64,000 nt of DNA, from positions 4,039 to 68,038 of the IMG/VR virus record IMGVR_UViG_3300028607_003036; one strand, written 5' to 3'. Under the pieces are notes generated by a model. The model did no database searches and had not been told where the DNA came from. It was given only the letters and a program-made list of their open reading frames with translations. This document shows, in pieces, positions 41,703 to 62,335 of the stretch. The stretch's first letter is position 1. Each line of letters opens with the position of its first letter. Origin of the DNA: a virus. The translations under genes were made by a program, and so were the position numbers.

Positions 41703-41713
41703 AGTGTCTTCAA
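41685..41713 (-). promoter_or_regulatory. Hybrid sigma-70-like promoter TTGAAG-N17-TATAAT
   Basis: The -35 comes from the neuA stop region and the -10 from the duplicated 69-bp piece. Confidence 0.45.
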
Positions 41714-42411
41714 GAATCTTTTTTTCTCCATATAATAGCTTCTGCAATCCAAAAATCGTCTTCGTTATCTATATCATGTGCTTCAATTTTATCAATATAA
41801 AATGGATATATATAATCTGTAAAAAAGTGTTGACATTTAATAAAATCTTCAAATTTTGCACCATATAATCCTGTAGGTCTTAATGGGAAATAATGATCCT
41901 GCCTCCTTGTATTTTTTTTGTGAAAGTTTTCATGATCTAAATATGGTATTAAACATTTATTATCGTTTGAAAGTGATAGTGTTGGTGGAAAGTCTACTTC
42001 TGTTACGGCTATTATTGATGTATAAGCTAGATCTAAAGTGATTAATTGATTAAACGATTTAACAAATTTATTCACTGTTTCATTTTTAATCATTACATAT
42101 GGTGGTAGAATCCAATAAATTTGATCAAACTTTTCGTAAAGTTTACTTTTTGCAACACTACATACCATATCTACAGCAGTTTTTTCAGATAATCTTTTAG
42201 AAGTTTCCGGGTATGATGAATGTTGCTTAGCTACATCTAAAATATCCTGTGAATCAGATGCGACTATTACTTCTGTAAAATTATTTTGTGCTGCGTCTAA
42301 ACAATAATATATAAGTGGTTGTCCACATAGATCTCGTATATTCTTGTCTTTGACACCAACAGAACCGCCACGTGTTGGAATAACGCAAAGGGATTTTATA
42401 ATATTATCCAT
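41710..42411 (-). CDS. neuA: Acylneuraminate cytidylyltransferase (NeuA/PseF/LegF type)
   Basis: IPTRGGSVGVKDKNIR.L.G.PLIYY, ASDS, DIDNEDDF. Confidence 0.88.
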   Translation of the reverse strand: MDNIIKSLCVIPTRGGSVGVKDKNIRDLCGQPLIYYCLDAAQNNFTEVIVASDSQDILDVAKQHSSYPETSKRLSEKTAVDMVCSVAKSKLYEKFDQIYWILPPYVMIKNETVNKFVKSFNQLITLDLAYTSIIAVTEVDFPPTLSLSNDNKCLIPYLDHENFHKKNTRRQDHYFPLRPTGLYGAKFEDFIKCQHFFTDYIYPFYIDKIEAHDIDNEDDFWIAEAIIWRKKDS

Positions 42412-43027
42412 GGAAAATTATTTTCCTTTCTTGTTCCATTTTGATTAACAAGTTTCTTTCTAAATTATAGTCGTGGCAAGCTGGTTTTGCTTTGGGCTTG
42501 TTCCAGTGATAGTGCCCCGTTAAAACATTCTTATCTTTTTTTGACCCGAATCCAAAAACGTGTGGAGAGATACCCGATTGAACCAGTAACGATATGATAA
42601 ATGCTCCCATAGACATATGTATGGAAATATTGTATTTAAAAAGATTTTGGTGGACCCATCTATTTGAGTGAAATACTTCTAATGACTCATCTAAATTTTC
42701 ACCATATTCTGCTAAAATTTTTGGCTCACAATCAACCAATACTTTAGTACCTCGCAGTTCTTTAATAAAATTTTTACCCGGCTGTTCTATACCATTTCTT
42801 ATGTCGGGAGAAGCTTTTAGAACATGAAGGTTGACACATCTTAAAGTAACTTTTTTACCAACATCTTTCTCAAATCCTAGAGTCGTAGCTCTATTAAATC
42901 TAACGACTTCGTCGTGTGAATCTATTTCCATACCTTGGCCAGCATGTAATAAACTATCAGCAGATCCAATAATAGCTACATCTTCATTAAGATATAAATC
43001 TGGCTTTATAAATAATATTCTTATCAT
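42404..43027 (-). CDS. GT29 sialyltransferase-like
   Basis: Sialylmotif L VAIIGS...G.EIDSHDEVVRFN.A...GFEKDVG.K.T; S-like SMGAFII; HY; VS-like HDYNLE. Confidence 0.88.
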   Translation of the reverse strand: MIRILFIKPDLYLNEDVAIIGSADSLLHAGQGMEIDSHDEVVRFNRATTLGFEKDVGKKVTLRCVNLHVLKASPDIRNGIEQPGKNFIKELRGTKVLVDCEPKILAEYGENLDESLEVFHSNRWVHQNLFKYNISIHMSMGAFIISLLVQSGISPHVFGFGSKKDKNVLTGHYHWNKPKAKPACHDYNLERNLLIKMEQERKIIFHG

Positions 43028-43485
43028 TGTTTTATTCTTTTTATTACTATTATTCTATCTTCAATCCAGCTAACATTAAAACCTTTTTGTTCTACATAAG
43101 GTAGAATTTTACAATCATCGCTTTTAGCGTTATCTATACATACAATTGCATGAGGATATAAAAATCTTTCTATCAGAAGATATTCTTGTAAACTATAATC
43201 TGTATTAAGTAGGACAAAGTCAAGTGGTGAATGTAAGAGTTTTAAGAGATTTAGACTATCTCCTCCTGATAAATAAACATAATCAAGGAGACTCTTGGTT
43301 TCCAGATATTCTTCACATACTAATGTATCTATACTTATTGCTACATAATCATGTTCATATTTAGAATTTTTAATAAAATTACAAATGTGTTCTGTTGAAT
43401 GTGCGGTACATCCAGTTTCTAAGATTATTAAGTCTCGTTGTAGTTTATCTTCTAACTCTTGAAGAAGGGGTATTAACCTCTGCAT
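43024..43485 (-). CDS. Class I SAM methyltransferase-like
   Basis: ILETG, GDSL..L, LDFVLL, IVCIDN. Confidence 0.55.
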   Translation of the reverse strand: MQRLIPLLQELEDKLQRDLIILETGCTAHSTEHICNFIKNSKYEHDYVAISIDTLVCEEYLETKSLLDYVYLSGGDSLNLLKLLHSPLDFVLLNTDYSLQEYLLIERFLYPHAIVCIDNAKSDDCKILPYVEQKGFNVSWIEDRIIVIKRIKQ

Positions 43486-44516
43486 GCTGTCCTCATAAAT
43501 GAAAGTTCTTGTTCGGGGGTTAGTTCAAAAGGGGGTTGTGCTGTGATTGGATCTTGTTGCTTTGGATTAATGTTATTTAAAGTGTCTTCGATATCATCAA
43601 ATAATTTTATATTTAATTCACGAGCAAAAAATGCAGCTTCTTCTAGTCGTGGTTTAATAATATTATTCATTTCTGGATTCTTAATAAGATATGAGTCACA
43701 AAATGAATTTTGTCCATCTCTTATAGAGATACTATCATTCCAAGATATACATGCTCCTATAGCAACAATCATTTTTTTAAAATTTTCTATCCAATGATCT
43801 GATTTCACCCATTCATGCTTGTCTCCAAAATACTGTGCACCTATTCCTGGAGAATTAGACTGGTGTAACATATATGGATAATCGTCTCGGTTACTATTGC
43901 CAGATACAGAATTTAAAAATCCATAAATTTGCTCGGTGAATCTAAAACAGGATGGATTAACCACGTTTGTTATTTTAGCTGTGCACTGTAAGTCTTTGGT
44001 ACGTATAACATTATGCCATGCCCCGTGCCACAACTTTGATTGCTCGGCAATTCTTGCTGTGGCTGTGTCTCCAATTATACTTGGTCGCTTGTACAACTTT
44101 CCTTTTTGAGTTACTTCACCATAGCATCCACCAGAAACAATAAACTTGTCAACACTGCCCCTTGAAGAAACGTAAGTCGGATGGGTTCTTAGGAATTCTA
44201 TATCTCTAGCCACTCCAGATAAGAAAAAGAAATCATCATTATCTACACAAAGTGTCAGCGGAGTACCAATATAATCAACTATGGTTGCAATTTTGTGATG
44301 AAATTCTGTTAAAGTTTTGTCTGGACCAAAATAGTGATATTCATACTCAAGATTTGGTAGTGTATCAAGTTGTGTCAACCAAGATATTTCTTCTTGACCC
44401 CCGTCTGCTACAATTATTTTCCACGGACATTGCACCATATCCATATAATGGAAGAACCGTTTGGTGTATTGTTGCCTCCCACAAAGAATCAATAAAATAG
44501 TTAGGTTACTTTTCAT
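43473..44516 (-). CDS. TIGR00180-like glycosyltransferase
   Basis: R..YTKRFF.Y, IIVADGG, TPLTLCVDNDDF. Confidence 0.75.
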   Translation of the reverse strand: MKSNLTILLILCGRQQYTKRFFHYMDMVQCPWKIIVADGGQEEISWLTQLDTLPNLEYEYHYFGPDKTLTEFHHKIATIVDYIGTPLTLCVDNDDFFFLSGVARDIEFLRTHPTYVSSRGSVDKFIVSGGCYGEVTQKGKLYKRPSIIGDTATARIAEQSKLWHGAWHNVIRTKDLQCTAKITNVVNPSCFRFTEQIYGFLNSVSGNSNRDDYPYMLHQSNSPGIGAQYFGDKHEWVKSDHWIENFKKMIVAIGACISWNDSISIRDGQNSFCDSYLIKNPEMNNIIKPRLEEAAFFARELNIKLFDDIEDTLNNINPKQQDPITAQPPFELTPEQELSFMRTACRG

Positions 44517-44629
44517 CTTAACATCCGTCCAAATAATATTAAAATATAACCTGATATATAGTACATAATGCTTATAAAAACTATTGTATAAATTGTGACA
44601 GAGACTATATCTTTAATTAGATTCCACAC
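44513..44629 (-). CDS. 38-aa membrane peptide
   Basis: MWNLIKDIVSVTIYTIVFISIMYYISGYILILFGRMLR; the TGA overlaps the next ATG. Confidence 0.5.
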   Translation of the reverse strand: MWNLIKDIVSVTIYTIVFISIMYYISGYILILFGRMLR

Positions 44630-44665
44630 GGCTTATAATTTTATATCTTCTACAAAGTATCATGG

Positions 44666-45547
44666 TTAATTAATATTTTCTTGATTTTTAACTTGTTCTA
44701 TACTTAATGCGTATTCTCTGTCAAGATTTGAATGTGGTTCTGGTGAGAAAAGGGCAATTTGAAATCTTCCTAGGTTTATATTATTCCACATATCGGTTTC
44801 AATAGAAGTTTGCGACGTTGTAAGAAATGTTGGTATATCCACACCGTGGTACATACTTGTAGTGAATATTATCATACATGTGCCCATTGCGTATTCATCT
44901 AAATACACTTTTTCTTCTCTTGAATTCAAAACATAGAATCCGCCATTTTCATAGTTACCTTTTGGATGTTTATCGGTTAATGTAATTCCACCAATAATTT
45001 TTTGGTTTTTAGGACTGTCCACGTGTGTTGAAATTTTCCCTGCAAATAAAGGGTAGTGTATGGCTCTAATACGATCAATCGTACCATCACTTGGAATATT
45101 GCTTTTAAACTCATCTGGTTTAAATCCACTAATCACTTTTAATTGACTCCAAGCTTCATCAACATATGGAAATATATTTACCTCATCTTTGTTCCATCTG
45201 AAAAAGTAATACGCATGATCAATAGATTCATAGCCTCCAGCGGGTCCAATGGGTGAATCTACAATAATATGATGATTAGGACATTCATCTAGAATTTTAT
45301 GGCTTTGTGGAGGAATAGATTTTCCCCAATTAAAAATTCGTTTTCTTAAACTTGTTGCTTCATCTTTAGTTAAAACATTTTGGATGATATAAATATCACC
45401 AGAATAAAAATTATCAATCATATCTAAGATTTCAGAAGGTAATAAATTAATATATCTTTCAAACTCCATCACATGGAGGTCTCTTACAAACCTCGGATAT
45501 GATACTATGCTTTCTAAATAATTCCATCTTTCTTTACATGGGTTCAT
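44666..45547 (-). CDS. 2OG-Fe(II) oxygenase
   Basis: HYP...THVD...NGGF...YHGV...RF (HxD...H...R). Confidence 0.8.
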   Translation of the reverse strand: MNPCKERWNYLESIVSYPRFVRDLHVMEFERYINLLPSEILDMIDNFYSGDIYIIQNVLTKDEATSLRKRIFNWGKSIPPQSHKILDECPNHHIIVDSPIGPAGGYESIDHAYYFFRWNKDEVNIFPYVDEAWSQLKVISGFKPDEFKSNIPSDGTIDRIRAIHYPLFAGKISTHVDSPKNQKIIGGITLTDKHPKGNYENGGFYVLNSREEKVYLDEYAMGTCMIIFTTSMYHGVDIPTFLTTSQTSIETDMWNNINLGRFQIALFSPEPHSNLDREYALSIEQVKNQENIN

Positions 45548-46566
45548 TTAAATCTCTTTACTATCTTGAGAATTTTTGCTATTTCGTCCTGAGACTCTTG
45601 TTTAAAAATAGGAAACAAATCTTGTGGGTTTTCACATCGTGCAAACTGTTTCATTTTATTTAGGCGTTGTGACTGTATGATATATCCTTCTATCTTTAGA
45701 TTTTTACATCTTAGCGATGCATCAGTATAATGCTCTTTGAATATAGAATTTTTATGACTACCGATATTTAAAGCCAATTCTTTTAGGTCTTTAGACTTAA
45801 AATCATCCTCATTAATTAAATTGATTAGTGGGGCCAAGTCAAGATCTAAAAAGTTAGGTTTAAATGGAATATCATTAGCTGTTTTGTCTGCTGTAAAATT
45901 AACTTTGGTAGATTGTTCTAAACTTCTAATCTGAAAGAATTCTGGTAATATATGTATCTTACCACGAAGTGCAAGAATTAATCCTAATACTTTGTCAAAG
46001 TAACGAAGTCCCCAAATCTCAGGATACTTGAGATGAAACTTATGTATCTTTTTTTGAACATCCGTCCTAATTATATTATGATTTTTAGCTGAAAATGTAT
46101 TCCAATGATGTTTTATTCTTTCTAGAGGATCGTCGTGATCTATCATCTCTACGAGATATTCAACTGTTTCATAGTCAAGACTGTCTTCATAGAGTGCGGC
46201 GCCATGACCACCTACAGCCACACATTCTGGGTGTTTATCTAAATATTTCAAACACTTAGGAATTGCCGGAAGTAATGTAAAATCGTCATCACAAGTGATT
46301 AACGTGTAGTCTGTGTCTACCATGTCTAACATCATATCAATTTTTTTGCAGTAGCTCCAGTTACAATTCCAATTATATTCAATATTATATTCATCTACAA
46401 TATTATCATTGTTAGAAATTATTAGTGGTTTTTCTGGAGTAGAATCAGCAACTATAATCTTACCAGGAAAATCTTTGTAATATTCAAGACAACGTCTCAA
46501 TGTTTTCCACCTATATTTTATTGGAATTATTATTGTTAAGTTCATTGCATCATATACTCTACACAT
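45544..46566 (-). CDS. TIGR00180-like glycosyltransferase
   Basis: IIPIKYR...RRCLEYY, IVADST, TDY.LITCDDDF, CLKYLDKHP. Confidence 0.85.
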   Translation of the reverse strand: MCRVYDAMNLTIIIPIKYRWKTLRRCLEYYKDFPGKIIVADSTPEKPLIISNNDNIVDEYNIEYNWNCNWSYCKKIDMMLDMVDTDYTLITCDDDFTLLPAIPKCLKYLDKHPECVAVGGHGAALYEDSLDYETVEYLVEMIDHDDPLERIKHHWNTFSAKNHNIIRTDVQKKIHKFHLKYPEIWGLRYFDKVLGLILALRGKIHILPEFFQIRSLEQSTKVNFTADKTANDIPFKPNFLDLDLAPLINLINEDDFKSKDLKELALNIGSHKNSIFKEHYTDASLRCKNLKIEGYIIQSQRLNKMKQFARCENPQDLFPIFKQESQDEIAKILKIVKRFK

Positions 46567-47510
46567 TCTTGTAGTTCAGATTTATATTCACTTTGTTTGA
46601 CTGAATTGTTAGAAAAAATAGAATATGGAAAATTATACGATAGATCAATCTTTGATGTAAAATTTTCTGTTTCAAAGTGATTCTTAATTAGATTATATAA
46701 TGTATTTTTGGATATATCACAATAATTGGCTAACGAGAGTAGATCTTCAGCTTCTAATAATCTTAAAGGAGTTGTATTTTTCATTTCTTCTTTAATTTTT
46801 GGTTGATTTATCACTCTTGATTGTGTGCTTCTAATTTGATATAAGATTGGTAACGTTTTTACATTTCCCAGTTTAGATAATATTACTAATAATAATCTCT
46901 CCAAATAATTAATTTTTGCTAAAGACTTGTTCTCTTGAAAAAATTTAAAACACTTTAATATTATGTCACTCCTAAAACAGGCGTGGTTTCTAGCATAGAA
47001 TGATTTATTTAAAATATTTTCTATTCTTCCAAGAGTATTATCTGAATAGAACTGTTCATTTGTACAACTAATATATGCTTCTGGATATTTAACTTTTACA
47101 TCTACCCCGTCGTGTGATAAATTGTTCTTAAACTCATCTGGTTGAAATCCACTTTGTGGAACATGAATATATAAATCAGAATATTGACCATCAACACATA
47201 CATAATCTAAATTTTTATCTAAAAACTCTACACATTTTGATATAGCTGATTTTATAACTAAATCGTCATCAGCACATTCTATTGTATATTTAGTGTCTAT
47301 GGTTTTGTAAACATTATACATTTTATCAAAGTAATTCATTTTTGGATAATATTGATATTCAATCCAGTTGCACCGTTCTATTCCTTTAATTGGTTCATCT
47401 GAAGATTCTGCTAAGATTATTTTAAATGACTCGTTTTTATAAAAATGAAGTATACGATTTACATTTTCTTTTCTATTTTTTACAGTTATTATTAATGTTA
47501 AGTCTAGCAT
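46542..47510 (-). CDS. TIGR00180-like glycosyltransferase
   Basis: ITVKNR...RILHFY, LAESS, TKY.IECADDD, CVEFLDKNLDY. Confidence 0.85.
   Translation of the reverse strand: MLDLTLIITVKNRKENVNRILHFYKNESFKIILAESSDEPIKGIERCNWIEYQYYPKMNYFDKMYNVYKTIDTKYTIECADDDLVIKSAISKCVEFLDKNLDYVCVDGQYSDLYIHVPQSGFQPDEFKNNLSHDGVDVKVKYPEAYISCTNEQFYSDNTLGRIENILNKSFYARNHACFRSDIILKCFKFFQENKSLAKINYLERLLLVILSKLGNVKTLPILYQIRSTQSRVINQPKIKEEMKNTTPLRLLEAEDLLSLANYCDISKNTLYNLIKNHFETENFTSKIDLSYNFPYSIFSNNSVKQSEYKSELQECVEYMMQ

Positions 47511-49201: not shown

Positions 49202-49202
<1 letters not shown>
48735..49202 (-). CDS. Protein with twin-arginine-like N-terminus (MIRRGFLASLSLIPF)
   Basis: RRxFL motif. Confidence 0.7.
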
Positions 49203-51179
<1,977 letters not shown>

Positions 51180-51186
<7 letters not shown>

Positions 51187-51467
51187 TATTCTCCCGTAAT
51201 AGTAGTTCCATTTGATTTAACAGCAAGGTAGTGATTTCTATCTACAAATATTTTAGACTCATTTATAGGAATGTCAAATATTATAGCGTCGTCTATCCCA
51301 TCTGCTAATCCAAAATCTTTTCCGTAATAGTTTAATGAAACCTCTGAGAATCTTTTAATATCATCTACATAAATTATTTCTATTTGCCACTCCATATGTT
51401 CAATGATATCTAGAAAGATAACAAATTTTGATTTATTATAAGTTTTACCATTTGTTTTATAGCTCAT
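51180..51467 (-). CDS. Hypothetical protein
   Basis: 95-aa ORF. Confidence 0.6.
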
Positions 51468-52105
51468 ATTTTTTTAAGGAATCTGGCCGGATTCCCCACC
51501 CAAATTTCGTTATCTGGTACATCATGTAAAACGACACTGCCGGCACCTACTATTGAATTTTCTCCTATTGTAACGCCGGGAATTACTGTTGCTCCAGCAC
51601 ATATCCAGGCATTTTCTTTAACAGTAACACATCCACATAGTGTAGCATTTGGAGCGATTTCTACACCATCTTCTAATATACACTCGTGATCTATAGAACA
51701 ACACTGATTTAGTATGACCCAGTTACCTATCTTAACTTTGGTTCCTATTGTTACACGGGGTGATATTTGTAATCCTTTTCCAAGTTTTAGATCATAGTTA
51801 GTAACGGTACTTTTATGTGCAAGAAGATGTGGTTTTAATCCCCATTTTTCTAGTCTTTCTGATATTAGTCTGCGTTCTTTTGCATATGGATTTCCAATAG
51901 TTACACAGAAATAATCAACCCCATCTTTATCTAGTCGTTTTTGTAATCCACAACATTTATCACTAAATACTTCTTGCCCCTCGTATTCTCTTTTATATCT
52001 ATCTATCATATGAGATATGGTTAAATCATAATTGTAGAGAGCTATAGGTTTCATTATTTCAAACTGACCACCTATCCCGTAAAATACAATATATTTCATA
52101 ACCAA
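51464..52105 (-). CDS. NeuD/PglD/PerB-family sugar acetyltransferase
   Basis: TIGNP..K..I, hexapeptide repeats, SIDHEC, VGNPAR. Confidence 0.92.
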   Translation of the reverse strand: MVMKYIVFYGIGGQFEIMKPIALYNYDLTISHMIDRYKREYEGQEVFSDKCCGLQKRLDKDGVDYFCVTIGNPYAKERRLISERLEKWGLKPHLLAHKSTVTNYDLKLGKGLQISPRVTIGTKVKIGNWVILNQCCSIDHECILEDGVEIAPNATLCGCVTVKENAWICAGATVIPGVTIGENSIVGAGSVVLHDVPDNEIWVGNPARFLKKI

Positions 52106-52133
52106 TCTACTGTGTCTGACATTGGTATTAACA

Positions 52134-53102
52134 TCATAGATTAATATTTCTTAAAGCTTTTAGGGTTTCTTCTATACATTCATATACTGAGCCTTGGGGA
52201 AGAAGTCTTTTATGATATATACGTGGATCATAATAATCCTTTGCACCAAAGTTGGGAAATGCAAATAGTTTTCTCATTTTTGAGCTGGAAACTTTGTAAT
52301 TATATTGATTTATTAATGGAGAATCAACCCACTCTATATCAAAGTATTTTTGTACAGATAACATTGATAAAATCCGCTTAAGAGTATAATTTTTTGTTAA
52401 AATATTTAAAGTTTCATTTTTATATTTACTATATGTGGCACATATATGAACAACTTCTAAACAATCAGTCAAACAAAGATAAGGTCTATAAAAATTGAGA
52501 GCTTCGGTCCAGACTGGAAGTGGCTTTCGCATTATTGAATTAAAACAAAATTTGTTGACGGCTGTCTGATTTCTCCACCCCGGCGACCACCCACAAATAG
52601 TTCCAAATCTAAGTATCATATAATCCATATCTCTTTGAATATCTTTTCTTAAATATTTTTCAACTTCAAACTTACCGTCAGCATAGGGTGATTGAGGATT
52701 AATTGTTCCTTCGTCAAATTCTTTAATTGGAGTATCATCTTGAGATAAACCATAAATACTTGTGCTTGAGGGGAAGATAAATTTTTGAACCTTTGCTAAT
52801 GTACACTTATCTATAAAATCAATAGTATCATCAACATTAACCTGTTTTACCAAAACTTCGTTATCAAATGATTTAGACGCATCTACAATAGCTGCTAGAT
52901 GAATAACTGTATCGAATTGTCTCAAAAAATCTATAGATAGATCTTGAAAGGATGACTCTACAAAATTTATACTGCGTGGCAGATTAAATAAAGAACAATA
53001 TCTTTGAGTATGAAAATTATCAACGGCGGTTATATCTGTTTTCCAATTATGGAGAAGATAGCTACCAATGTAGCCTGCGGCTCCAGTTAAAAGAGTTCTC
53101 AT
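52134..53102 (-). CDS. NAD-dependent epimerase/dehydratase (extended SDR)
   Basis: TGAAGYIG, HLAA, PSSTSIYG, YADGK, LRFGT. Confidence 0.93.
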   Translation of the reverse strand: MRTLLTGAAGYIGSYLLHNWKTDITAVDNFHTQRYCSLFNLPRSINFVESSFQDLSIDFLRQFDTVIHLAAIVDASKSFDNEVLVKQVNVDDTIDFIDKCTLAKVQKFIFPSSTSIYGLSQDDTPIKEFDEGTINPQSPYADGKFEVEKYLRKDIQRDMDYMILRFGTICGWSPGWRNQTAVNKFCFNSIMRKPLPVWTEALNFYRPYLCLTDCLEVVHICATYSKYKNETLNILTKNYTLKRILSMLSVQKYFDIEWVDSPLINQYNYKVSSSKMRKLFAFPNFGAKDYYDPRIYHKRLLPQGSVYECIEETLKALRNINL

Positions 53103-53545
53103 TTTAATTCCTCAATAATATATAAAAGGTATTCTTGCCAGCTATTAATATAATCTTCTTTACTATACTTTCGATCCCAAAATACTAACAAAGACGTATC
53201 TCTTGTATAATATATCTCCTCACTCCAAACCATATATGGAACTAAAATAGAATCTCCCGGTTTTAATATATATTTAGTAAATTTTTCATATAAATCTCTA
53301 CATGTTACTTGAATAGTTCCATTTAAACATATCATTAATTGAGAAGTATTAAGATGAGCGTGTTTTCCCCGTATTTCTCCGGGATCTACTCTTACTACTG
53401 AAAAACAATGTATAGGTTTAAATGGCATAGTGGAAAAATCATAAGCAGTTAATGTTCCTCCACCACTTGAAAATCCAGGAAAACCACTTAATTGTACATC
53501 ATTTATAGTGGGATATTGTTTTTGTTTTTTCATAAATCTTTTCAT
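53099..53545 (-). CDS. FdtA/QdtA/WxcM-like sugar 3,4-ketoisomerase (cupin)
   Basis: RGKHAH...Q..ICLNG, YMVWSEE, DYI. Confidence 0.88.
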   Translation of the reverse strand: MKRFMKKQKQYPTINDVQLSGFPGFSSGGGTLTAYDFSTMPFKPIHCFSVVRVDPGEIRGKHAHLNTSQLMICLNGTIQVTCRDLYEKFTKYILKPGDSILVPYMVWSEEIYYTRDTSLLVFWDRKYSKEDYINSWQEYLLYIIEELK

Positions 53546-53572
53546 TGTTTTTTTTTGGATATTGATCTATAT

Positions 53573-54028
53573 TTATCTATTTTCTAGACTCCAATTTTCA
53601 CCAAAGCTTCCAACAGGAAGTTTAAAATCATCATTTGGTGTCCACTTTTTATCTAACCAATAAAGCAAAATAGCTTCCTCGCTGCCAATATTCATATAAC
53701 CATGGTAAGAATGGTATGGTAGTTCAAGAACTTGTGGGTTTTTATCTGATAGATAATGAAATTTCATTTCATATAAATCTGAACACCAACCTCCTATACT
53801 TTTTGATATTACTTCTTTACATGCAAAAATTGTACTTTCTGGATGTATGGACTCAGCAATTCCAACTTTTAACTGTCCCTTAATTAAAAACCAATAATCT
53901 AAATATTCATGAGCGTGCCATGCAGAAATAGATCCATTAGCAGGAATGTAGGACACATTAACTTGTCCATGATCCATAGGAAATATATCCATGAGAGATT
54001 GTTTTCTATCATCTTGAAAAAATTTCAT
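53573..54028 (-). CDS. RmlC-like cupin (sugar epimerase-like)
   Basis: DDR, AWHAH, GQLKVG, YHGYMN. Confidence 0.75.
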   Translation of the reverse strand: MKFFQDDRKQSLMDIFPMDHGQVNVSYIPANGSISAWHAHEYLDYWFLIKGQLKVGIAESIHPESTIFACKEVISKSIGGWCSDLYEMKFHYLSDKNPQVLELPYHSYHGYMNIGSEEAILLYWLDKKWTPNDDFKLPVGSFGENWSLENR

Positions 54029-54035
54029 AGTTTCG

Positions 54036-54122
54036 CTACTTCAGCCATTTAATACAGGCGGCAACTCCAAGGGTAACTGCGAAAACGATTAAACATATCA
54101 TACCTATTGCTAAAAAATCCAT
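54036..54122 (-). CDS. 28-aa membrane peptide
   Basis: MDFLAIGMICLIVFAVTLGVAACIKWLK; the ATG abuts the upstream stop. Confidence 0.5.
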   Translation of the reverse strand: MDFLAIGMICLIVFAVTLGVAACIKWLK

Positions 54123-54829
54123 TATAATACCTCGTTCTTATCTACAGAATATTTAATAATACTAGGATCTAACACAAATCTCGAAATAATACCGTCCCAA
54201 TCATATCCAAATAATTGACATTCTCTATCACAACATAGAGAGACAAGCTGTTTCGTATTATAGTTATAGAATGATTTATAATCTGTTTTATTAGTAGAAG
54301 CGTTAATTTTTTCTTTTTTCCCAACTTTAATATCAATACTATCACAAAGATTGTATAACTCTTCACTTAGATTCTCGGTACGAAGTATAAAATCTGGTAC
54401 ACAATCTCCTTTCACATTGAATAGATTATAGTATAAGAAGTTTTTTTGATAATATTGGAAGCTGTCATTATTAAACCGCTGAGAATAGAAATTTTTAACA
54501 AATTGAGGAAATGTTTCTCCATATACATTCTCATGTTCTTTTGGTCCGGACATAATCCAGCGGAATGCTACAAGTTTTCCACGTGCAGGATTAGATTGGT
54601 GTTTCTTGGTCCACCAACTTACCAACAAATCATAGGGGTTTCTTATCGTCGTAAAACAAACGGCTTTCCCTTGATCTTTTTCTCTATAAAATTGCTCATA
54701 TAACTTAATACGATCTTCTAGTTTTTCACTTTCATCAAAATAAAAAAATCTGTGGCCTTTTTCGTGTTCAAGAACCTTTTTACAATATGTACTGCCGGTT
54801 CTTGGTATGGCTAGATAATAGAGATTCAT
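54122..54829 (-). CDS. Sulfotransferase family 2 (carbohydrate sulfotransferase-like)
   Basis: 5'-PSB IPRTGST, 3'-PB RNPYDLLVSW, DFILRTENL, INAS...DYKSFY. Confidence 0.88.
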   Translation of the reverse strand: MNLYYLAIPRTGSTYCKKVLEHEKGHRFFYFDESEKLEDRIKLYEQFYREKDQGKAVCFTTIRNPYDLLVSWWTKKHQSNPARGKLVAFRWIMSGPKEHENVYGETFPQFVKNFYSQRFNNDSFQYYQKNFLYYNLFNVKGDCVPDFILRTENLSEELYNLCDSIDIKVGKKEKINASTNKTDYKSFYNYNTKQLVSLCCDRECQLFGYDWDGIISRFVLDPSIIKYSVDKNEVL

Positions 54830-55039
54830 TTAATCTTCTCCAAACACTCTGTCCTGACATTTCTGACACATCTTAGATATATTCCATTCCTTGCGAGAGA
54901 TTTTATTTCTAAATCCATCTTCAGATTGTTTTTTTCCACATTGAGAGCAGTGATTTTGATGATTATCATAACCATGTGGAGCTATCTTGTTTAGAAATGC
55001 TTCCATTTCAGGTGATTTCATTTTTAACCTCATGTACAT
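54830..55039 (-). CDS. Small Zn-binding phage protein
   Basis: CSQC...FRNKISRKEW.IS.MCQKCQD. Confidence 0.75.
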   Translation of the reverse strand: MYMRLKMKSPEMEAFLNKIAPHGYDNHQNHCSQCGKKQSEDGFRNKISRKEWNISKMCQKCQDRVFGED

Positions 55040-56264
55040 AGGGCTGTGTGGTTATCCAAGTTCCCTTAAAATTATTGTGTTTCTTAAGGATCTCATCCTG
55101 ATAGTTAGGAGCGGCAAGATAAATAACATCTGCTACTTCATTTAAATCTTCTGGTTCCTTTACGATGGGAATATGTGTTAGTGAAGTAAATTTACCAATT
55201 TTTTCTAAAGTTGTATCTGTAATACATTCAATCAGATCTCGTGAATAATTCATATCCATTTTTGTTTTATCAGCATCTTCATGACCGTTTATTACATAAT
55301 TTAAATATGAATAGATAGTACTAGATTTACTTGTTGCACCAAAAGCCATTTTTCTTTTACCAAAATTATTTTCTAAATATTCATAGAATTTTTCTATATT
55401 CCCTCTTACCTGTTCAGCAAATCTAAAATATGTTTCCAGTTCTTGTAATTTTGCGGTACTTTCTTCATATCCGAGCAATCCATTCATATCATCATCATAA
55501 GGAATATTAAAATTTCCTTTTTCAAAGAAGTATCGTTGAGAACCCATATGAATATCTGGTAATTCCTGTATCTTTACTAATCTTAACCCATGGTTATATG
55601 AGATTTTCTCTAATGCTATTCCTGAAAATATATAATGATGTTCATCATAAAATTGAGAATATGCACAACTCTTGATTGTATGTGATAATGATGGATCTTC
55701 AGTAATTAAAACTCCGCCATCTTTTAATGCTATGAAACACGCTTCAAAGAATTCATCTATATCTGAAACATGACACGCACAATTAGTCGCATAAATTAAA
55801 TCAAATTGACCACACTCTTCTTTTACTATCTTTGCATTTGATATATTCCAGAAAAATGGATAACACCTGTATCCTTCATTGTTTAGCTGATCGCAAAAGT
55901 TTTCACATGGTTCTACAGAAACTGCCTGATTTGTTAGAAAATTCTTTAGGAAAGTTCCATCGTTGCTACCAATTTCTAGTATTTTTTCACATTCAAAATT
56001 CTGTTTGATATAATCGGCAGCACTTTTAAAATGTCGTCTCATTGTTTGAGAACCACCAGTACGGTACGGGTAGTCTTTATTAAACATTAGCTTTGCATCA
56101 GGTTGCTCAACTAGTGAGACTAAGTAGTTCTCGGTATTAAATTGAACTTTAAGAGGAAAAGAATATTCAGTTGCTTTACCACTTTCGTAGGAGTCTTTCT
56201 CTTCTTTTGTAATGAACTTGTTTGAAAGGGGTTGAATTCCTAGGTCCAAAAATGTATGTTTCAT
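55008..56264 (-). CDS. NDP-sugar C-methyltransferase family
   Basis: LG.QPLSN, EIGSNDGTFL, NCACH, YDEH..IFS, FGATSK. Confidence 0.9.
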   Translation of the reverse strand: MKHTFLDLGIQPLSNKFITKEEKDSYESGKATEYSFPLKVQFNTENYLVSLVEQPDAKLMFNKDYPYRTGGSQTMRRHFKSAADYIKQNFECEKILEIGSNDGTFLKNFLTNQAVSVEPCENFCDQLNNEGYRCYPFFWNISNAKIVKEECGQFDLIYATNCACHVSDIDEFFEACFIALKDGGVLITEDPSLSHTIKSCAYSQFYDEHHYIFSGIALEKISYNHGLRLVKIQELPDIHMGSQRYFFEKGNFNIPYDDDMNGLLGYEESTAKLQELETYFRFAEQVRGNIEKFYEYLENNFGKRKMAFGATSKSSTIYSYLNYVINGHEDADKTKMDMNYSRDLIECITDTTLEKIGKFTSLTHIPIVKEPEDLNEVADVIYLAAPNYQDEILKKHNNFKGTWITTQPYVHEVKNEIT

Positions 56265-56577: not shown

Positions 56578-56619
56578 TGTTTGTTTGTAGTTTGTGATAA
56601 TAATTTATCTTTTTTAGGA

Positions 56620-57527: not shown

Positions 57528-58244
57528 CTATCTAGAATGACTTCTAGCAATAACTCTTTTAGTACCTTCCTCTTTAAGAAAGCCTCCAAAATGAAACATA
57601 GAACTGTGAAAGAAAAACATAGAACCGGCACTTCCTTCAATAGGAATTAGTTTATCTTCTATGGGGGCAAGTTCGGGATAATCCTTAACCTTATTTCTTA
57701 TCTTTGCATAATCAGACGTTTCCTTTAATGCATTCTGCCTGACTCTTTCTCCTAGGACTTGAGAACCTGGAATACAATGAAACGCACCATTTTCTACAGT
57801 TACATCATTAACATATATAAACGATTTACAGGTGGGGGTTTTGTCTACATGTGTAAACATATTAGGACTCCATTCATCTTCTGGAATCACATTTGTTTCT
57901 TCTGTGAGAAATATTTCTTCTGCAAAAGAAAAATTAGAACGATCTATCCACTCTCTATAAATATCATATTGCCAATCTGAACAAAATGTTTTATAAATCA
58001 TCGGATATTTTAGTCTTATATCTGTTTTATCTTTAGTTTTCATCCTACATGCACGACCAGGACTATAACTGGCTGCCAACTTTTCATACTCAAAACACTG
58101 AAAGACTTCCTGCTGAAATCCTGCTAAGTCTTCTCCTTCTAAAAAGGATGGAATAAAACAGATTCCAAATTCTCGTATAATATCTACAACTTTATTTGGA
58201 TTTTCTAGTGCTAATTGTTTATCTATAGTAAATTTATAATTCAT
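57528..58244 (-). CDS. PhyH-family 2OG-Fe(II) dioxygenase
   Basis: THVD, IYVNDVTVENGAFHCIPGSQ, GSAGS.FFF.S..FH.G. Confidence 0.88.
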   Translation of the reverse strand: MNYKFTIDKQLALENPNKVVDIIREFGICFIPSFLEGEDLAGFQQEVFQCFEYEKLAASYSPGRACRMKTKDKTDIRLKYPMIYKTFCSDWQYDIYREWIDRSNFSFAEEIFLTEETNVIPEDEWSPNMFTHVDKTPTCKSFIYVNDVTVENGAFHCIPGSQVLGERVRQNALKETSDYAKIRNKVKDYPELAPIEDKLIPIEGSAGSMFFFHSSMFHFGGFLKEEGTKRVIARSHSR

Positions 58245-58606
58245 TAGCGTTTATCCCATATTATTTTGTTTATCTTGTAATATGATTTTGGTATAGTTCG
58301 TTCGTATATTTTTTGTCTTTTTACTAAGTGAGAAATATCTATTTGCCATTTATTATCTTTTAAACGTTTTATTTCTATCATATCTTCTCTAGCTTTTTGT
58401 GGTACAAACATTTCTATTGCAGCTTCAGAATCTATCCAACAGTGTAAATCTTTGTCTATAACCATTTGCCAATGAGGAATCCATGCAGCTTCAAGAACGT
58501 CTAAATCTTTTACATGTCTATTTAATTTTTCAATAGGGAATTTATCATGAGCAAAAGTAGTACTAGCAATTATACAAATAATAAGTGGGGCTAGAACTTT
58601 TCTCAT
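58244..58606 (-). CDS. Exported hypothetical protein
   Basis: Signal peptide MRKVLAPLIICIIASTTFA. Confidence 0.7.
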   Translation of the reverse strand: MRKVLAPLIICIIASTTFAHDKFPIEKLNRHVKDLDVLEAAWIPHWQMVIDKDLHCWIDSEAAIEMFVPQKAREDMIEIKRLKDNKWQIDISHLVKRQKIYERTIPKSYYKINKIIWDKR

Positions 58607-59391
58607 GATGTCACCTTCTGGATTAGTTGTTGTTTCTCAATCAGACCTCTCATCTGAGATAACTCTATCTGACAATCAGCATCTGAAATAGCTTCACTTG
58701 GATTAGGATGACACTCAGCAAAAATACCGTCAAAATCGAAAATACTCGATGCTAAGAAGTATTTCTTAGCAAGTTCTCTGTTGCCCCCGGTAAAACCATC
58801 TCTTGTGTATTGCGTGGAGTGGGTGCAATCAATTATGACCTTATCCCAGTGTTTCCGCATATGTTCAACACCACCTAAATCTAGAACAAGTCTATCATAT
58901 CCAAAAAATGTTCCACGATCTGTAATCCACGCTTCACAATGGGGATTTGTCTTTTTAATCTTATCTATCCATTTGCAGGATTGAGTAGGACTAGCCCACT
59001 GGCCTTTTTTAACATTGACTTTATTAAAATACTTTGCTGCTTCAATTAACATGTCTGTTTGACGACATAAAAATGCTGGTATTTGTATTAAATCTATTAC
59101 TGGTGCTAAGTCTACTGCCTGCCAAGGCTCGTGAAAATCTGTTGTTAATTGTATCTCTGGCAATTCTTTTTTAATTGCTTTAAAGCATTCTATGCCATAT
59201 TCTAAATTGAAGTCAGTATCTTGTGATATACCTCTTCTACCCTTTATAGAAGTTCTATTAGCTTTACAAAATGATATTTTATAAAACCATGTTTTAATTC
59301 CAAGATCATTCATTAATGATGAAAGATATTTACCTGTTTCTAAATAAGATTGTTTGGATTCTAATCCACACATACCTAATATATAATGCAT
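58603..59391 (-). CDS. kdsA: KdsA-like 3-deoxy-ulosonate phosphate synthase
   Basis: KANRTS, TTDFHE, QIPAFLCRQTD, NVKKGQW, DRG, DCTHS, ECHPNP..A.SDA. Confidence 0.9.
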   Translation of the reverse strand: MHYILGMCGLESKQSYLETGKYLSSLMNDLGIKTWFYKISFCKANRTSIKGRRGISQDTDFNLEYGIECFKAIKKELPEIQLTTDFHEPWQAVDLAPVIDLIQIPAFLCRQTDMLIEAAKYFNKVNVKKGQWASPTQSCKWIDKIKKTNPHCEAWITDRGTFFGYDRLVLDLGGVEHMRKHWDKVIIDCTHSTQYTRDGFTGGNRELAKKYFLASSIFDFDGIFAECHPNPSEAISDADCQIELSQMRGLIEKQQLIQKVTS

Positions 59392-59392
59392 A

Positions 59393-59535
59393 TTACACCT
59401 TATTTAATCTAGAGTATTCACCAAATATTTCAGTGGCTTTATTGTTGTAAACTATTGCTGCTTCTTTTGGATCTTTAAAATATTCTAGATAGTAGTTTTG
59501 TTCTTTGGTTCTTAATTCTGCTGTATATCCTCTAA
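59393..59535 (-). pseudogene. AP2-domain remnant of an HNH-AP2 endonuclease
   Basis: Frame without a start codon: RGYTAELRTKEQNYYLEYFKDPKEAAIVYNNKATEIFGEYSRLNKV*. Confidence 0.75.
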
Positions 59536-60156
59536 TTTCTCCATATGTATAGAAGGAGCGATTGGTCCTAAATCATAACCATCTTCACTAAGAGAAAAAC
59601 TTCCAAACCCTTTACCTTCTTGACCATTTTTACCAGTTGATTCATTTCCGTCACCACTTCCGTTACCTCTACCGAAACCATTTCCATTACCTTTTCCGTT
59701 TCCTTGACCTTTTTTAGATCCCTTTTTACCCTTTTTAGTTCCCACTACAATTTCGCCATTCTTTAATCTTTTAATTATATCTTCCATTAACTCATGTAGC
59801 TTTCTTTCATATGGAACTTTATATGTTCGTGGCTCATTGCTTTCGTAATCAAGAATACCAGATTTTGATTTAACTAGTGGTGTAACCCATAAAAATATAG
59901 CTCCGGGATTACCAATCTGTTTATTTTCCTCGTGTACGATAACCCAGTGAATTAAGAATTTATCTGGTAGTGATTGTTCTGTAGCAAATCCCTTGTATGA
60001 ATCTATTGAGTGCCATACGATAAATCCAATCCAAGTAGAAAATGCTATAGTTAGGATTTTTAAAGTCCAGTGACCCTTGCCTCCGATAATAAAATATAGT
60101 AGTAAAACTACTAAACATGTTATTACAAAGGGAATACTTAAAGATGTTAATTCCAT
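59512..60156 (-). CDS. Membrane protein (2 TM, exported domain, Gly/Lys-rich tail), partner of the ExbBD-like pair
   Basis: Hydrophobic N-terminus; GKKGKKGSKKGQGNGKGNG tract. Confidence 0.75.
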   Translation of the reverse strand: MELTSLSIPFVITCLVVLLLYFIIGGKGHWTLKILTIAFSTWIGFIVWHSIDSYKGFATEQSLPDKFLIHWVIVHEENKQIGNPGAIFLWVTPLVKSKSGILDYESNEPRTYKVPYERKLHELMEDIIKRLKNGEIVVGTKKGKKGSKKGQGNGKGNGNGFGRGNGSGDGNESTGKNGQEGKGFGSFSLSEDGYDLGPIAPSIHMEKLEDIQQN

Positions 60157-60800
60157 TAATGAAACTCCCTTGGAGTAGATCCAGGTCTTTGTGTAGCTAA
60201 TAATTTTTGCAATTCGTTAATTCCGTGTACTTTGCCTTCCATATCCACCGAAAATCTAAAAGCAGTTTGTTCTTCTCCGTGATGAGTAAACTTCATCTTC
60301 TTAATATGTACCAAGCTATAACTATTCATCTTTTCAAGTTTTATAATTACTTCTAGCGGCTTTGTTTCTCTCCATGTCCAAGCATGAGCATTAATTGTAA
60401 ATTCAGTAGGCAGAATGCCACGTATATATACGTGTTCTACATTTTTTGTAATTGTGAATATTTCACCCTGTTCTGTCGTGAATGTATCAGAATATTTGCC
60501 AGTATCATCCTGTTCTAGGTGTAGAAATCCTTGTTCTCTTCTTCTAAATCCAACTAAATTACCATATCCATCCTCAACCCATAGATCCATATCAGTTTCA
60601 CTATCGTCATACCAACTCATGGTAATGATAAATTCAGCTTTACTTTCTGTGTTTTGTGACTTCTTATCTTCAACTGTGATAAGTAGAAAAGATAAGATGA
60701 ATAGTACCATTAATCCTAGTACTAGACTAAATAACATATCCAAAAAAGATGTATCAGCACTATATTTATTTTGCATTTTTTTATCTAATGAAATATCCAT
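60156..60800 (-). CDS. ExbD/MotB-like single-TM protein with a YfaP/DUF2135-like exported domain
   Basis: FLDMLF at the TM start (conserved Asp); DMDLWV...G...HLEQDD...E. Confidence 0.65.
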   Translation of the reverse strand: MDISLDKKMQNKYSADTSFLDMLFSLVLGLMVLFILSFLLITVEDKKSQNTESKAEFIITMSWYDDSETDMDLWVEDGYGNLVGFRRREQGFLHLEQDDTGKYSDTFTTEQGEIFTITKNVEHVYIRGILPTEFTINAHAWTWRETKPLEVIIKLEKMNSYSLVHIKKMKFTHHGEEQTAFRFSVDMEGKVHGINELQKLLATQRPGSTPREFH

Positions 60801-60879
60801 ATATTAGAAAAAATATAATTTCAATCCAAGCCGCCATCTCAGAATCAATCAGAAAACTTAGAAGTGAATCTATTTTCAT
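60781..60879 (-). CDS. 32-aa membrane peptide between the motA-like and exbD-like genes
   Basis: MKIDSLLSFLIDSEMAAWIEIIFFLIYGYFIR; ATGA overlap with the motA-like stop. Confidence 0.45.
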   Translation of the reverse strand: MKIDSLLSFLIDSEMAAWIEIIFFLIYGYFIR

Positions 60880-61382
60880 TTTTTATTCTTTTCTAAGAAA
60901 TTATTTCTAATGAATCGAACCTCATTTTCCAACATAAAATATTCTAAACGAAGTAATAAAGAACAAATAATTCCTGTGATGGTAGTGATTAAGGCGGTTG
61001 ATATACCACCGGCAATTTGTTGAATTAGCATTTTCATCTCTAGTGGATTAGATACATCCATGTTTTCAAAGCCACTGAAACTTAACATTAATCCTATCAC
61101 GGTTCCTAACAATCCTAGGCTGATAACTTGAGCAGATACAAACCATCCCCATTCGCATAATCGTTCAGCACGATTACATGAGTACTCTGTATGATCTATT
61201 GCCCAGCATTTAAATCCACACCATATTGACATAAAATAGAACAATAACATTATTATGTAACTAATATGTGTTGAATCCCCTTCCCATATCGCTCCGTATA
61301 TCCCTAGTCTATAGAGAACTAGTGAAGATACAGAAATTAATGATATCAGAAGGAACCAGTAGAGAAATATTTTATGTTTCAT
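60876..61382 (-). CDS. MotA/TolQ/ExbB proton-channel family
   Basis: LGLLGTVIGL...F and GISTALITTITG helices. Confidence 0.9.
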   Translation of the reverse strand: MKHKIFLYWFLLISLISVSSLVLYRLGIYGAIWEGDSTHISYIIMLLFYFMSIWCGFKCWAIDHTEYSCNRAERLCEWGWFVSAQVISLGLLGTVIGLMLSFSGFENMDVSNPLEMKMLIQQIAGGISTALITTITGIICSLLLRLEYFMLENEVRFIRNNFLEKNKK

Positions 61383-61420
61383 TTTATTTTACCAGATATG
61401 TTATATATTATAGTTGATCA

Positions 61421-62335
61421 TTAATTTCCATAACTTTCCTTCATTTCTAAAATCATATCTTCTATTTCTAGATAATCTGCTTTTCGTAATTCTGGAAATG
61501 GTTTCTTATTACCTATTTCGAATCCTAAAGCTTTAATTGCATATCTTAAAGATATGTGCCATCCATATTTAGACATTACATCAAAAAATTTATCTTCAAG
61601 TTTTAACATCATATCAGGATGGTCGCTAGGTTTAGAAGAAAAAATTTGTTCTCCATTATAAATACATTCATATAAAGCGTTTTCTAATTTAGGAAATACA
61701 CTACCCAATCCAGAAAGATACGTATTTGCCCCGGCGTTTATACATAAAGAGAATCGTCTACCAGAACCACCAGCAACACAGATAGTAAAGTTATCATTAG
61801 CTAATCGAGATACCTGATAAGCTGTTTCATAGTGAAGTGACTCTTCTTTTAATCCCGTAATGTTAGGGTGCTCGCTCAACTTTTGAATAACATCTAGAGG
61901 ATAGTCTACCCATTTTAGTCCGTATCCAGAACGTAGTGGTTGTGCGTGTATCCATATTGGACATGGTGAATCATCGGCAACTTCAAAGAAGAAATCAATA
62001 ATAGTTTGTTCATCGTAAAGTCTATCTGGATAAAGAATTAAAGCAATATCATCATTTTTTACAGATCCTTTTATACATCTTAATAGACGTTTTGTTTCCG
62101 TTAAAGGCGCCGGAGATATACCTGATATTAGCTGTTTATCAAAATAATCATAACACCGCCAGTTAAAATTTATAATTTCGGCATTTGATAATAAATTATA
62201 CTGACTTGTTCCAGCCGTAGTCATTATTGTTTCAACGCCTTCACTACTAAGATATTTAAGATATCTTCCTAGTTCTTTATTGTTTAGACTTTCGTCTTCG
62301 TTATAGAACGGTGGTATGGGGACTATAGGACTCAT
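61421..62335 (-). CDS. DapA/NanA-family class I aldolase
   Basis: PIPPF, TAGTSQYNLLS..E, ITGLKEE Schiff-base Lys. Confidence 0.85.
   Translation of the reverse strand: MSPIVPIPPFYNEDESLNNKELGRYLKYLSSEGVETIMTTAGTSQYNLLSNAEIINFNWRCYDYFDKQLISGISPAPLTETKRLLRCIKGSVKNDDIALILYPDRLYDEQTIIDFFFEVADDSPCPIWIHAQPLRSGYGLKWVDYPLDVIQKLSEHPNITGLKEESLHYETAYQVSRLANDNFTICVAGGSGRRFSLCINAGANTYLSGLGSVFPKLENALYECIYNGEQIFSSKPSDHPDMMLKLEDKFFDVMSKYGWHISLRYAIKALGFEIGNKKPFPELRKADYLEIEDMILEMKESYGN

Follow-up and report, generated by a model that had tools for sequence, protein, structure and literature searches.

Four genes in a 64,000-nucleotide stretch of viral DNA (here called the window: bases 4039-68038 of the linear, 77,532-bp IMG/VR virus record IMGVR_UViG_3300028607_003036) very probably form one functional module. 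The first is a 233-aa NeuA/PseF-type cytidylyltransferase, a putative cytidine monophosphate (CMP)-ulosonate synthetase, at 41710-42411 (Pfam CTP_transf_3, 57.7 bits); next to it, at 42404-43027, lies a minimal, soluble, 207-aa member of glycosyltransferase family 29 (GT29, the sialyltransferase family; Pfam Glyco_transf_29), a predicted CMP-ulosonate transferase. Further along are a 262-aa metal-dependent synthase resembling KdsA, the 3-deoxy-D-manno-octulosonate (Kdo) 8-phosphate (KDO8P) synthase, at 58603-59391 (Pfam DAHP_synth_1, 125.9 bits against a cut-off of 25.5), and a 304-aa Schiff-base enzyme at 61421-62335 that belongs to a distinct, mostly viral subfamily of the dihydrodipicolinate synthase/N-acetylneuraminate lyase (DHDPS/NAL) superfamily (Pfam DHDPS, 41.4 bits; cut-off 22.1). 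All are on the minus strand and intact, with ends exactly as given in the preliminary description of this DNA. The window is read here as a dispersed copy of a phage module for a Kdo-type, eight-carbon 3-deoxy-2-ulosonic acid in which the enzymes act in series, a reading given a probability of about 0.5 as a whole.

The same four families occur together, or no more than about 6 kb apart, in nine other phage-like contigs -- ten instances with the window -- where the homologs are 33-52% identical and keep their catalytic residues. The full set is found in L002, L008, L019, L026, L058, L059, L060 and a 315-kb contig, and L005 has the GT29, DHDPS-like and KdsA-like genes, no cytidylyltransferase being found in the stretch of it that was searched. 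(A 239-aa open reading frame (ORF) upstream of the L005 GT29 was considered for that role and ruled out by alignment.) The genes are often contiguous and overlapping, and are often accompanied by a methyltransferase, a PhyH-type dioxygenase and a small phosphatase of the haloacid dehalogenase (HAD) type. Three distant GT29 relatives (36-38% identity) on long metagenome contigs are arranged in the order GT29, DHDPS-like, KdsA-like, with the cytidylyltransferase within a few kb of that run in L002 and L008. A scan of IMG/VR with the single GT29 protein found nothing; an alignment-based GT29 scan gave 21 further loci, and local hidden Markov models of the module proteins, run on these, placed a cytidylyltransferase within 4 kb of GT29 in 14 of the 21 and within 10 kb in one more, with the full KdsA-like and DHDPS-like set in L019 and L026. 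Four window-type contexts (L058, L059, L060 and the 315-kb contig) were sampled with no other query than the DHDPS-like protein, and the set is complete in each. The order is GT29, methyltransferase, DHDPS-like, KdsA-like, cytidylyltransferase in the 315-kb contig, which also encodes TubZ; GT29, HAD, DHDPS-like, KdsA-like, cytidylyltransferase in L058; and DHDPS-like, KdsA-like, DUF6356, cytidylyltransferase, methyltransferase, PhyH, GT29 in L059 and L060.

Linkage is strict for the KdsA-like gene, which adjoins the DHDPS-like gene in 9 of the 9 related loci of its subgroup examined, often overlapping it. (In L005, a 259-aa Cys-rich ORF with an HNH-like motif, at 11542-12321, lies between the two and is probably a homing-endonuclease-type insertion into the module.) In the window itself, about 15 kb of other sugar genes separates the KdsA-like gene from the GT29/cytidylyltransferase pair, and a MotA/ExbB-family protein with four hydrophobic segments (60876-61382), together with two membrane proteins, occupies 59512-61382 on the minus strand between the DHDPS-like and KdsA-like genes. 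This ExbB-like set looks like an insertion that split the module, since the two flanking genes adjoin in all related loci (with only the HNH-type ORF between them in L005). The spread of the window genes over 20 kb with unrelated genes between them, the ExbB-like set included, and the long tree branches of the window cytidylyltransferase and GT29 are what would be expected if these were unrelated members of a mixed glycan island, or partly inactive relics whose co-occurrence means nothing; with the set recurring in nine other contigs with catalytic residues kept, all the window ORFs intact, and the synteny data contradicting it, that explanation is extremely improbable. The coupling of a NeuA-type activator and a GT29 with a KdsA-like synthase, first pointed out in the preliminary description, is thus a recurrent combination. 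That description also allowed that KdsA might simply supplement the Kdo of the host lipopolysaccharide (LPS), which is unlikely, given how strictly the KdsA-like gene adjoins the DHDPS-like one, near the cytidylyltransferase and GT29.

Using NCBIfam, the cytidylyltransferase was matched to PseF at 84.2 bits over residues 8-225, while the KdsB models reach at most 36 bits and cover only the N-terminal nucleotide loop, in agreement with the original view of it as NeuA-type and not KdsB-type. It misses the PseF equivalog cut-off of 205.7 bits and is no pseudaminic-acid equivalog. In PDB it is closest to the Vibrio CMP-NeuAc synthetase 6ifd (E 6e-10), and it has the motifs TRGGS (13), KDKN (21), RRQD (169) and DIDNEDD (213). 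In a tree it groups with the cytidylyltransferases of other KdsA-type loci (clade support 93/93); the clade members from L002, L018 and L019 score 114-130 bits with PseF and no more than 58 with KdsB-type models. Its start and the stop of GT29 share 8 nt (ATGGATAA). Upstream of GT29, and translationally coupled to it by a 4-nt overlap, is a 153-aa ORF (43024-43485, minus strand) with no match in Pfam or NCBIfam; the gene overlap makes it a possible accessory member of the module.

The GT29 protein scores 74.2 bits with Pfam Glyco_transf_29 (PF00777), for which the curated cut-off is 23, and aligns with ST6Gal1 and ST3Gal1 in PDB at E 8e-9, across sialylmotif L. All four sialylmotifs are present: L at residues 17-66 (VAIIGS...RFN), S at 139-161 (SMGAF...FGFG), III at 172-175 (HYHW) and VS at 185-190 (HDYNLE). 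Among 88 relatives, R43, F44, N45, G141, H172, Y173, H185 and E190 are invariant or at least 90% kept. An AlphaFold2 model, with a predicted local distance difference test (pLDDT) score of 94.4, has the GT-A variant fold of the solved GT29 enzymes; its top 30 Foldseek matches in PDB are solely mammalian GT29 proteins (ST8SiaIII, ST6GalNAc2, ST3Gal1, ST6Gal1), all at probability 1.0 and TM-scores of 0.58-0.68, with the GT42 enzyme CstII ranking next. The earlier recognition of a GT29 with sialylmotifs is confirmed. No transmembrane segment was detected, and so none of the type II membrane anchor of the animal members; VAIIGS occupies the site of the animal-enzyme Cys, and the cysteines of the L-S disulfide are missing. 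Published bacterial GT29 proteins also lack both anchor and disulfide (PMC5811610), so membership in the family still holds; the same paper shows that the family, described earlier as best known from eukaryotes, is not confined to them. From its linkage to the cytidylyltransferase, the protein is predicted to transfer a CMP-activated ulosonic acid; no other CMP-sugar-type transferase family was found in the record.

By word-based and profile searches, such free-standing, minimal GT29 proteins (mostly about 195-225 aa) form a large family, with 134 clusters at 50% identity for E<=1e-30 and 1321 for E<=1e-10. A GT29 phylogeny, proposed earlier as a check, does not sort by synthase type. The bacterial relatives recovered come from Opitutales (loci L009, L010 and L056) and Neptunomonas metagenome-assembled genomes (MAGs), and no kin of the KdsA-like or DHDPS-like proteins was found within 10 kb of their GT29 genes, so that they offer no clue to the pathway. 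The GT29 of two Opitutales MAGs nests in the phage clade (support 100/99), which could reflect either binned phage contigs or gene transfer, or else be a hint at the host. Fusions are also seen: P0020 joins GT29 to an S-adenosylmethionine-dependent methyltransferase (409 aa), and P0113 joins it to an HMGL-like TIM barrel of the pyruvate-aldolase type (527 aa). Seven consecutive GT29-like ORFs lie beside a single cytidylyltransferase in L035 (4755-10594), and in L026 (9488-11536) two GT29 copies have a methyltransferase between them.

The DHDPS-like protein was called a DapA/NanA aldolase in the preliminary description. The superfamily is right, though "NanA-like" is not: the protein lacks the catalytic Tyr and the GxDE motif, and DapA and HOGA are equally close. 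Its AlphaFold2 model (pLDDT 85.8) is a TIM barrel that resembles DapA, HOGA, NanA and keto-deoxy-galactarate dehydratase to about the same degree (TM-score about 0.8), at 14-20% identity to the solved members, and no functional subfamily was singled out by Foldseek. With the DapA equivalog model it scores 39 bits, against a cut-off of 206. Lys163, invariant in 120 clusters, aligns with the catalytic Lys of DapA, while an invariant His130 stands at the site of the catalytic Tyr (Tyr133 in DapA, Tyr137 in NanA). GGSGRR, at 189-194, occupies the DapA SGN-DD site, where NanA has GYDE. The acidic DD/DE pair that contacts the tail of the substrate in DapA and NanA is thus replaced by Arg193-Arg194 in the window-type subgroup, which has a further conserved Arg105; these three residues suggest that the tail of the substrate is negatively charged, as in a sugar phosphate. 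The family has 419 clusters at 90% identity (E<=1e-10), and in the Atlas clusters that hold the protein the members of known taxon are largely viral.

A small HAD phosphatase of about 95 aa travels with this protein in the relatives, being fused to its N-terminus in L026 and encoded directly beside it in L017, L018, L019, L020 and L058. Pfam does not recognize it; a PDB profile search (9iqw, "capsule biosynthesis protein", E 5e-19) and a weak match to the NCBIfam model TIGR01689, together with a DxDxT motif, identify it as being of the EcbF/BcbF capsule-phosphatase type and not KdsC. The pairing of cytidylyltransferase and DHDPS-like gene also extends to bacteria, where it is found in L056, on an 8.7-kb, 35% GC contig of one of the two Opitutales MAGs whose GT29 nests in the phage clade, and in the chromosome of Cyanobacterium sp. 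Dongsha4 (L057; CP084098.1, 2008983-2029945), a cultured organism that could serve for studying the enzyme. In L057, a 749-aa NeuB/SAF/AP_endonuc_2 protein precedes the pair and a 2336-aa multi-domain glycosyltransferase follows it.

The KdsA-like synthase just misses the cut-offs for KDO8P synthase (NF003543, 231.9 bits against 242; TIGR01362, 221.3 against 314). Aligned residue by residue with the Aquifex aeolicus enzyme 1fwn (189 bits), it keeps the residues that match the metal ligands -- Cys8, the His in THSTQ, the Glu in AECHP and the Asp in SDAD -- as well as KANRT, FLCRQTD, VKKGQ and DRGT. Every residue aligned with a ligand of metal, phosphoenolpyruvate (PEP) or the phosphate of arabinose 5-phosphate is retained, including the Arg that holds this phosphate. 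Membership in the KdsA (DAHP_synth_1) family implies a five-carbon acceptor and an eight-carbon product. Of the products earlier thought possible -- an unusual Kdo, a Kdn (2-keto-3-deoxynononic acid) or a nonulosonate-like sugar -- the Kdo type is thereby favored, and Kdn or a nonulosonate is disfavored because every arabinose 5-phosphate and metal ligand of KDO8P synthase has been kept.

So canonical an active site would also fit the making of ordinary Kdo, with a NeuA-type enzyme in place of KdsB supplying unmodified CMP-Kdo, GT29 adding it to a glycan, and the DHDPS-like protein serving as a lyase for the trimming or recycling of surplus free ulosonic acid, or having an unrelated role. Near the module, L060 also carries a gene of the KpsC/S family (Capsule_synth), whose members are CMP-Kdo-dependent transferases. 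GT29 proteins have already been tied to Kdo transfer (PMC11288761, PMC13171606), and a cultured cyanophage has a plain KdsA-KdsB pair. Such a scheme is nonetheless improbable: it leaves without explanation the NeuA-type activator (a Gram-negative host has KdsB), the DHDPS-like protein with its own HAD, the PhyH protein and the methyltransferases, and a degradative lyase fused to a biosynthetic phosphatase, as in L026, is hard to justify.

In other phages carrying the minimal GT29, a different synthase is used. Twelve other viral records with the GT29 but without a KdsA-like gene were checked, and 11 of them have NeuB, in most cases immediately next to the genes for GT29 and the cytidylyltransferase. 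NeuB was not found in three KdsA-type records searched whole (77.5, 55 and 82 kb), DAHP_synth_1 was not found in five NeuB-type records checked, and in none of the records checked do the two occur together. Since all of these records are fragments, this mutual exclusion is put forward as a strong trend only: a constant activation/transfer unit is combined with one of two PEP-dependent synthases, NeuB or KdsA-like. The "mismatch" of synthase and activator noted earlier thus recurs regularly across a subgroup of phages and is not peculiar to a single genome. When all 77,532 bp of the record were searched in six frames, no NeuB, SIS/KdsD, KdsC, NeuC, KpsC/S or WaaA was found, which extends to the full record what had been reported of NeuB, KdsD and KdsC in the window; as the record is only about 26% complete by CheckV, these absences apply to it and not to the whole phage genome. 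In L020, the NeuB ORF (10631-11503) is only 290 aa long and matches the NeuB model as far as position 274 of 329; it seems to lack the C-terminal SAF domain.

For the serial route, we infer the substrates, the order of the steps, the exact sugar and the acceptor, starting from directly observed family membership, intact catalytic motifs and gene linkage. Judging by its conserved active-site residues, the KdsA-like enzyme would condense PEP with host arabinose 5-phosphate to give Kdo 8-phosphate. The DHDPS-like enzyme would then form a Schiff base at C2 of the still-phosphorylated 2-keto-3-deoxy acid and alter it, plausibly through C4 epimerization by retro-aldol and aldol reactions, or through dehydration; this is the weakest link. 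It is placed before dephosphorylation because the HAD is fused or adjacent to it and because Arg105, Arg193 and Arg194 are conserved. The small HAD would next remove the phosphate -- in the window's phage, host KdsC or a gene not seen would serve -- and the cytidylyltransferase would make the CMP-sugar. The soluble GT29 would transfer the sugar, with inversion, to a cytoplasmic acceptor, which would be a protein of the phage or a glycan precursor of the host; this location is assigned because no transmembrane segment was found in the enzymes of the island and no Wzx/Wzy/WaaL-like membrane protein in the window. A PhyH-type dioxygenase and methyltransferases would probably tailor the sugar. The enzymes look active, to judge from the KdsA-like ligands, the CMP-binding and catalytic His/Glu motifs of GT29 and its preserved fold, and the agreement of the clade's cytidylyltransferases with PseF, not KdsB, along their full length. 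The serial route is preferred because no conserved gene is left without a function in it. It also accounts for the phosphatase keeping company with the DHDPS-like gene and not the KdsA-like one, and for the phage having its own activator and transferase though a Gram-negative host has KdsB and WaaA. A Kdo context for it is provided by the KpsC/S-family gene of L060 and by the GT29 proteins of plants and E. coli K6 that are linked to Kdo. A further extension, in which the DHDPS-like protein is a new biosynthetic Schiff-base enzyme that remodels Kdo 8-phosphate into an undescribed octulosonic acid, needing its own NeuA-type activator and minimal GT29, methylated or hydroxylated, and decorating the particles or re-coating the host, is tentative and rather doubtful.

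Several observations weigh against the serial route. The window module is in three pieces over 20 kb; its cytidylyltransferase is the most divergent in its clade (branch 1.53) and has Val at the first P-loop Lys of its relatives; and no phosphatase was found in the 77.5-kb record, in which both KdsC and a small-HAD homolog were looked for. The role given to the DHDPS-like protein is a guess, and it could equally be an independent aldolase-type synthase; its pairing with the cytidylyltransferase occurs with NeuB in place of the KdsA-like gene in L018, L020 and L057. The cytidylyltransferase of L060 (KdsA-type) is 69% identical to that of L018 (NeuB-type), which may mean that the DHDPS-like enzyme, and not KdsA, determines the activated sugar; this identity also weakens the idea that the cytidylyltransferase clade tracks KdsA versus NeuB. 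Finally, L018, L059 and L060 have two cytidylyltransferases each, which fits two parallel sugars.

These points lead to the main rival, in which the DHDPS-like protein, with the HAD in the relatives, is a pyruvate-dependent aldolase synthase that itself feeds the cytidylyltransferase and GT29, while KdsA or NeuB makes a second sugar for another transferase or for host LPS, its Kdo 8-phosphate being finished by host KdsC and KdsB or by the second phage cytidylyltransferase. The constancy of the cytidylyltransferase/DHDPS-like pair with KdsA-like, with NeuB and in the bacterial loci L056 and L057 is in its favor, as are the L060/L018 identity, the doubled cytidylyltransferases and the HMGL-like fusion in P0113. 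It must be set against the adjacency of the KdsA-like and DHDPS-like genes in all nine related loci examined in their subgroup, which argues for one pathway, and against the presence of only one cytidylyltransferase and one GT29 in the 77.5-kb record; an aldolase joining pyruvate to arabinose 5-phosphate would, moreover, duplicate KdsA, and His in place of the catalytic Tyr is unlike the known NAL/DHDPS aldolases. Two such parallel routes are a possibility to be kept in view, though an unlikely one.

The tailoring candidates in the window, both on the minus strand, are a CmcI/rhamnosyl O-methyltransferase-family protein at 49202-49942 (Pfam RMNT_CmcI, 176 bits), a candidate sugar O-methyltransferase, and a PhyH-family Fe(II)/2-oxoglutarate dioxygenase at 57528-58244 (Pfam PhyH, 45 bits). 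A 40%-identical homolog of the former directly follows the KdsA-like gene in L002, and methyltransferases of other families lie inside the module in L008, L019, L059, L060 and the 315-kb contig; homologs of the latter adjoin the cytidylyltransferase in L002 and immediately precede GT29 in L059 and L060. The dioxygenase, which in the window, too, has module genes as neighbors, and the recurrent methyltransferases, the GT29 fusion in P0020 among them, suggest further tailoring of the sugar. Between them, 50074-56264 (minus strand) encodes a DegT aminotransferase, a hexapeptide acyltransferase, an SDR epimerase/dehydratase, an FdtA-like isomerase, a second cupin and a sugar C-methyltransferase, which suggest a second sugar route, to a C-methylated amino-dideoxyhexose in the same glycan; L002, L005 and L020 have homologs of several of them (35-50% identity) close to the module, and L058 has members of the same families. 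Closer to GT29 are two paralogs (43473-44516 and 46542-47510, minus strand) that match the NCBIfam glycosyltransferase domain TIGR04440 (108 and 106 bits), with a GT2 between them and a 293-aa ORF of no recognized family nearby. Just upstream of the module, at 62641-63546 (minus strand), a thioredoxin-like gene adjoins a Sulfotransfer_4 gene; such a pair also precedes GT29 on the P0008 contig (L049, 127-866), and a thioredoxin/sulfotransferase pair is annotated near KdsA in cyanophage S-SCSM2R.

The window is about 32% GC, with nearly all of its genes on the minus strand, and elsewhere encodes a split DnaE-type polymerase, a Toprim-domain (primase-like) protein, DnaB, RecA and ribonucleotide reductase; the source is a large, uncultured marine tailed phage rather than a giant virus of eukaryotes. 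It has no close kin among deposited phages: the region had zero megablast matches in 50,697 phage records. As tblastn with the DnaB-like helicase gave only distant matches to Bacillus and Geobacillus phages (<30% identity), neither lineage nor host has been assigned. A promoter and terminator scan did not rise above shuffled background and gave no operon boundaries.

No paper was found in the literature that describes phage GT29 modules, or this module as such. Two things are new: the association of a minimal phage GT29 with a synthase of the KdsA type, and, in the setting of ulosonic-acid biosynthesis, a DHDPS/NAL subfamily whose catalytic residues are altered. Together they belong to a phage gene module, widespread yet so far unstudied, for glycans with acidic sugars. 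The GT29, soluble and free of disulfides, is the smallest known catalytic core of its family (about 205 aa) and should be useful for structure-function work and glycoengineering, and the exchange of KdsA-like and NeuB synthases under a constant activation/transfer unit offers a testable case of synthase swap. Should virions or host surfaces carry a new octulosonic acid, this would bear on phage-host recognition and on marine glycan chemistry.

The module shares with the canonical Kdo pathway (KdsD, KdsA, KdsC, KdsB and WaaA of GT30, or KpsC/KpsS) a KDO8P-synthase-type enzyme, activation with CMP and, in the relatives, a HAD. It differs in that the activator is NeuA/PseF-type and not KdsB, the transferase is GT29 and not GT30 or KpsC/S, the HAD of the relatives is EcbF/BcbF-type, KdsD and KdsC are absent from the record, and the DHDPS-like protein is an extra core member. 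Cassettes for CMP-nonulosonic acids (NeuB/PseI/LegI, NeuA/PseF/LegF and a transferase) follow the same logic of synthase, activator and transferase with an optional HAD. The Bacteroides Kdn route likewise uses a NeuB-type Kdn 9-phosphate synthase, a HAD phosphatase and a CMP-Kdn synthetase. In the window's phage, by contrast with such cassettes, the synthase is of the KdsA (DAHP_synth_1) family and neither NeuB nor NeuC was found in the record, though sister phage cassettes with the same minimal GT29 do use NeuB.

That a GT29 should go with a Kdo-type donor is less of a mismatch than the preliminary description supposed. The plant GT29 RCKT1/MGP2 is needed for Kdo on rhamnogalacturonan II (PMC11288761), and a predicted GT29-GT107 poly-Kdo protein of E. 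coli K6 links a GT29 domain to Kdo (PMC13171606); for these, as for the phage GT29, the proposed donor is of the CMP-Kdo type and not CMP-sialic acid. The plant enzyme is Golgi-resident, in a pathway with CMP-Kdo synthase (PMC5811610), and the E. coli protein is a two-domain fusion, whereas the phage protein is a free-standing, soluble, 207-aa core without the L- and S-motif cysteines of the animal enzymes. The bacterial GT29 sialyltransferase-like proteins of proteobacterial genomes (Petit et al., 2018; PMC5811610) are like it in having four sialylmotifs and neither a transmembrane anchor nor disulfide cysteines, but they were reported without pathway context, while the phage family is large and tied to a cytidylyltransferase. 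Among phages, cyanophage S-SCSM2R also encodes KdsA, paired with an activator that is KdsB-type (PMC12801897), and no GT29 or DHDPS-like gene was found within 8 kb of its KdsA locus; a marine environmental viral genome has been listed with NeuA and KdsA among "LPS genes" (PMC5332604). Neither of these two papers describes a GT29/DHDPS-like module, or a pathway beyond "LPS genes". As for the DHDPS/NAL superfamily (DapA, NanA, 2-keto-3-deoxygluconate aldolase, HOGA and KdgD-type dehydratases), the phage protein shares its fold (TM-score about 0.8), the Schiff-base Lys in G-[ILM]-K-E-E, the proton-relay Ser/Thr and Tyr107, and is set apart from its members by His for Tyr, by Arg-Arg for DD/DE and by its place among genes for a CMP-ulosonate.

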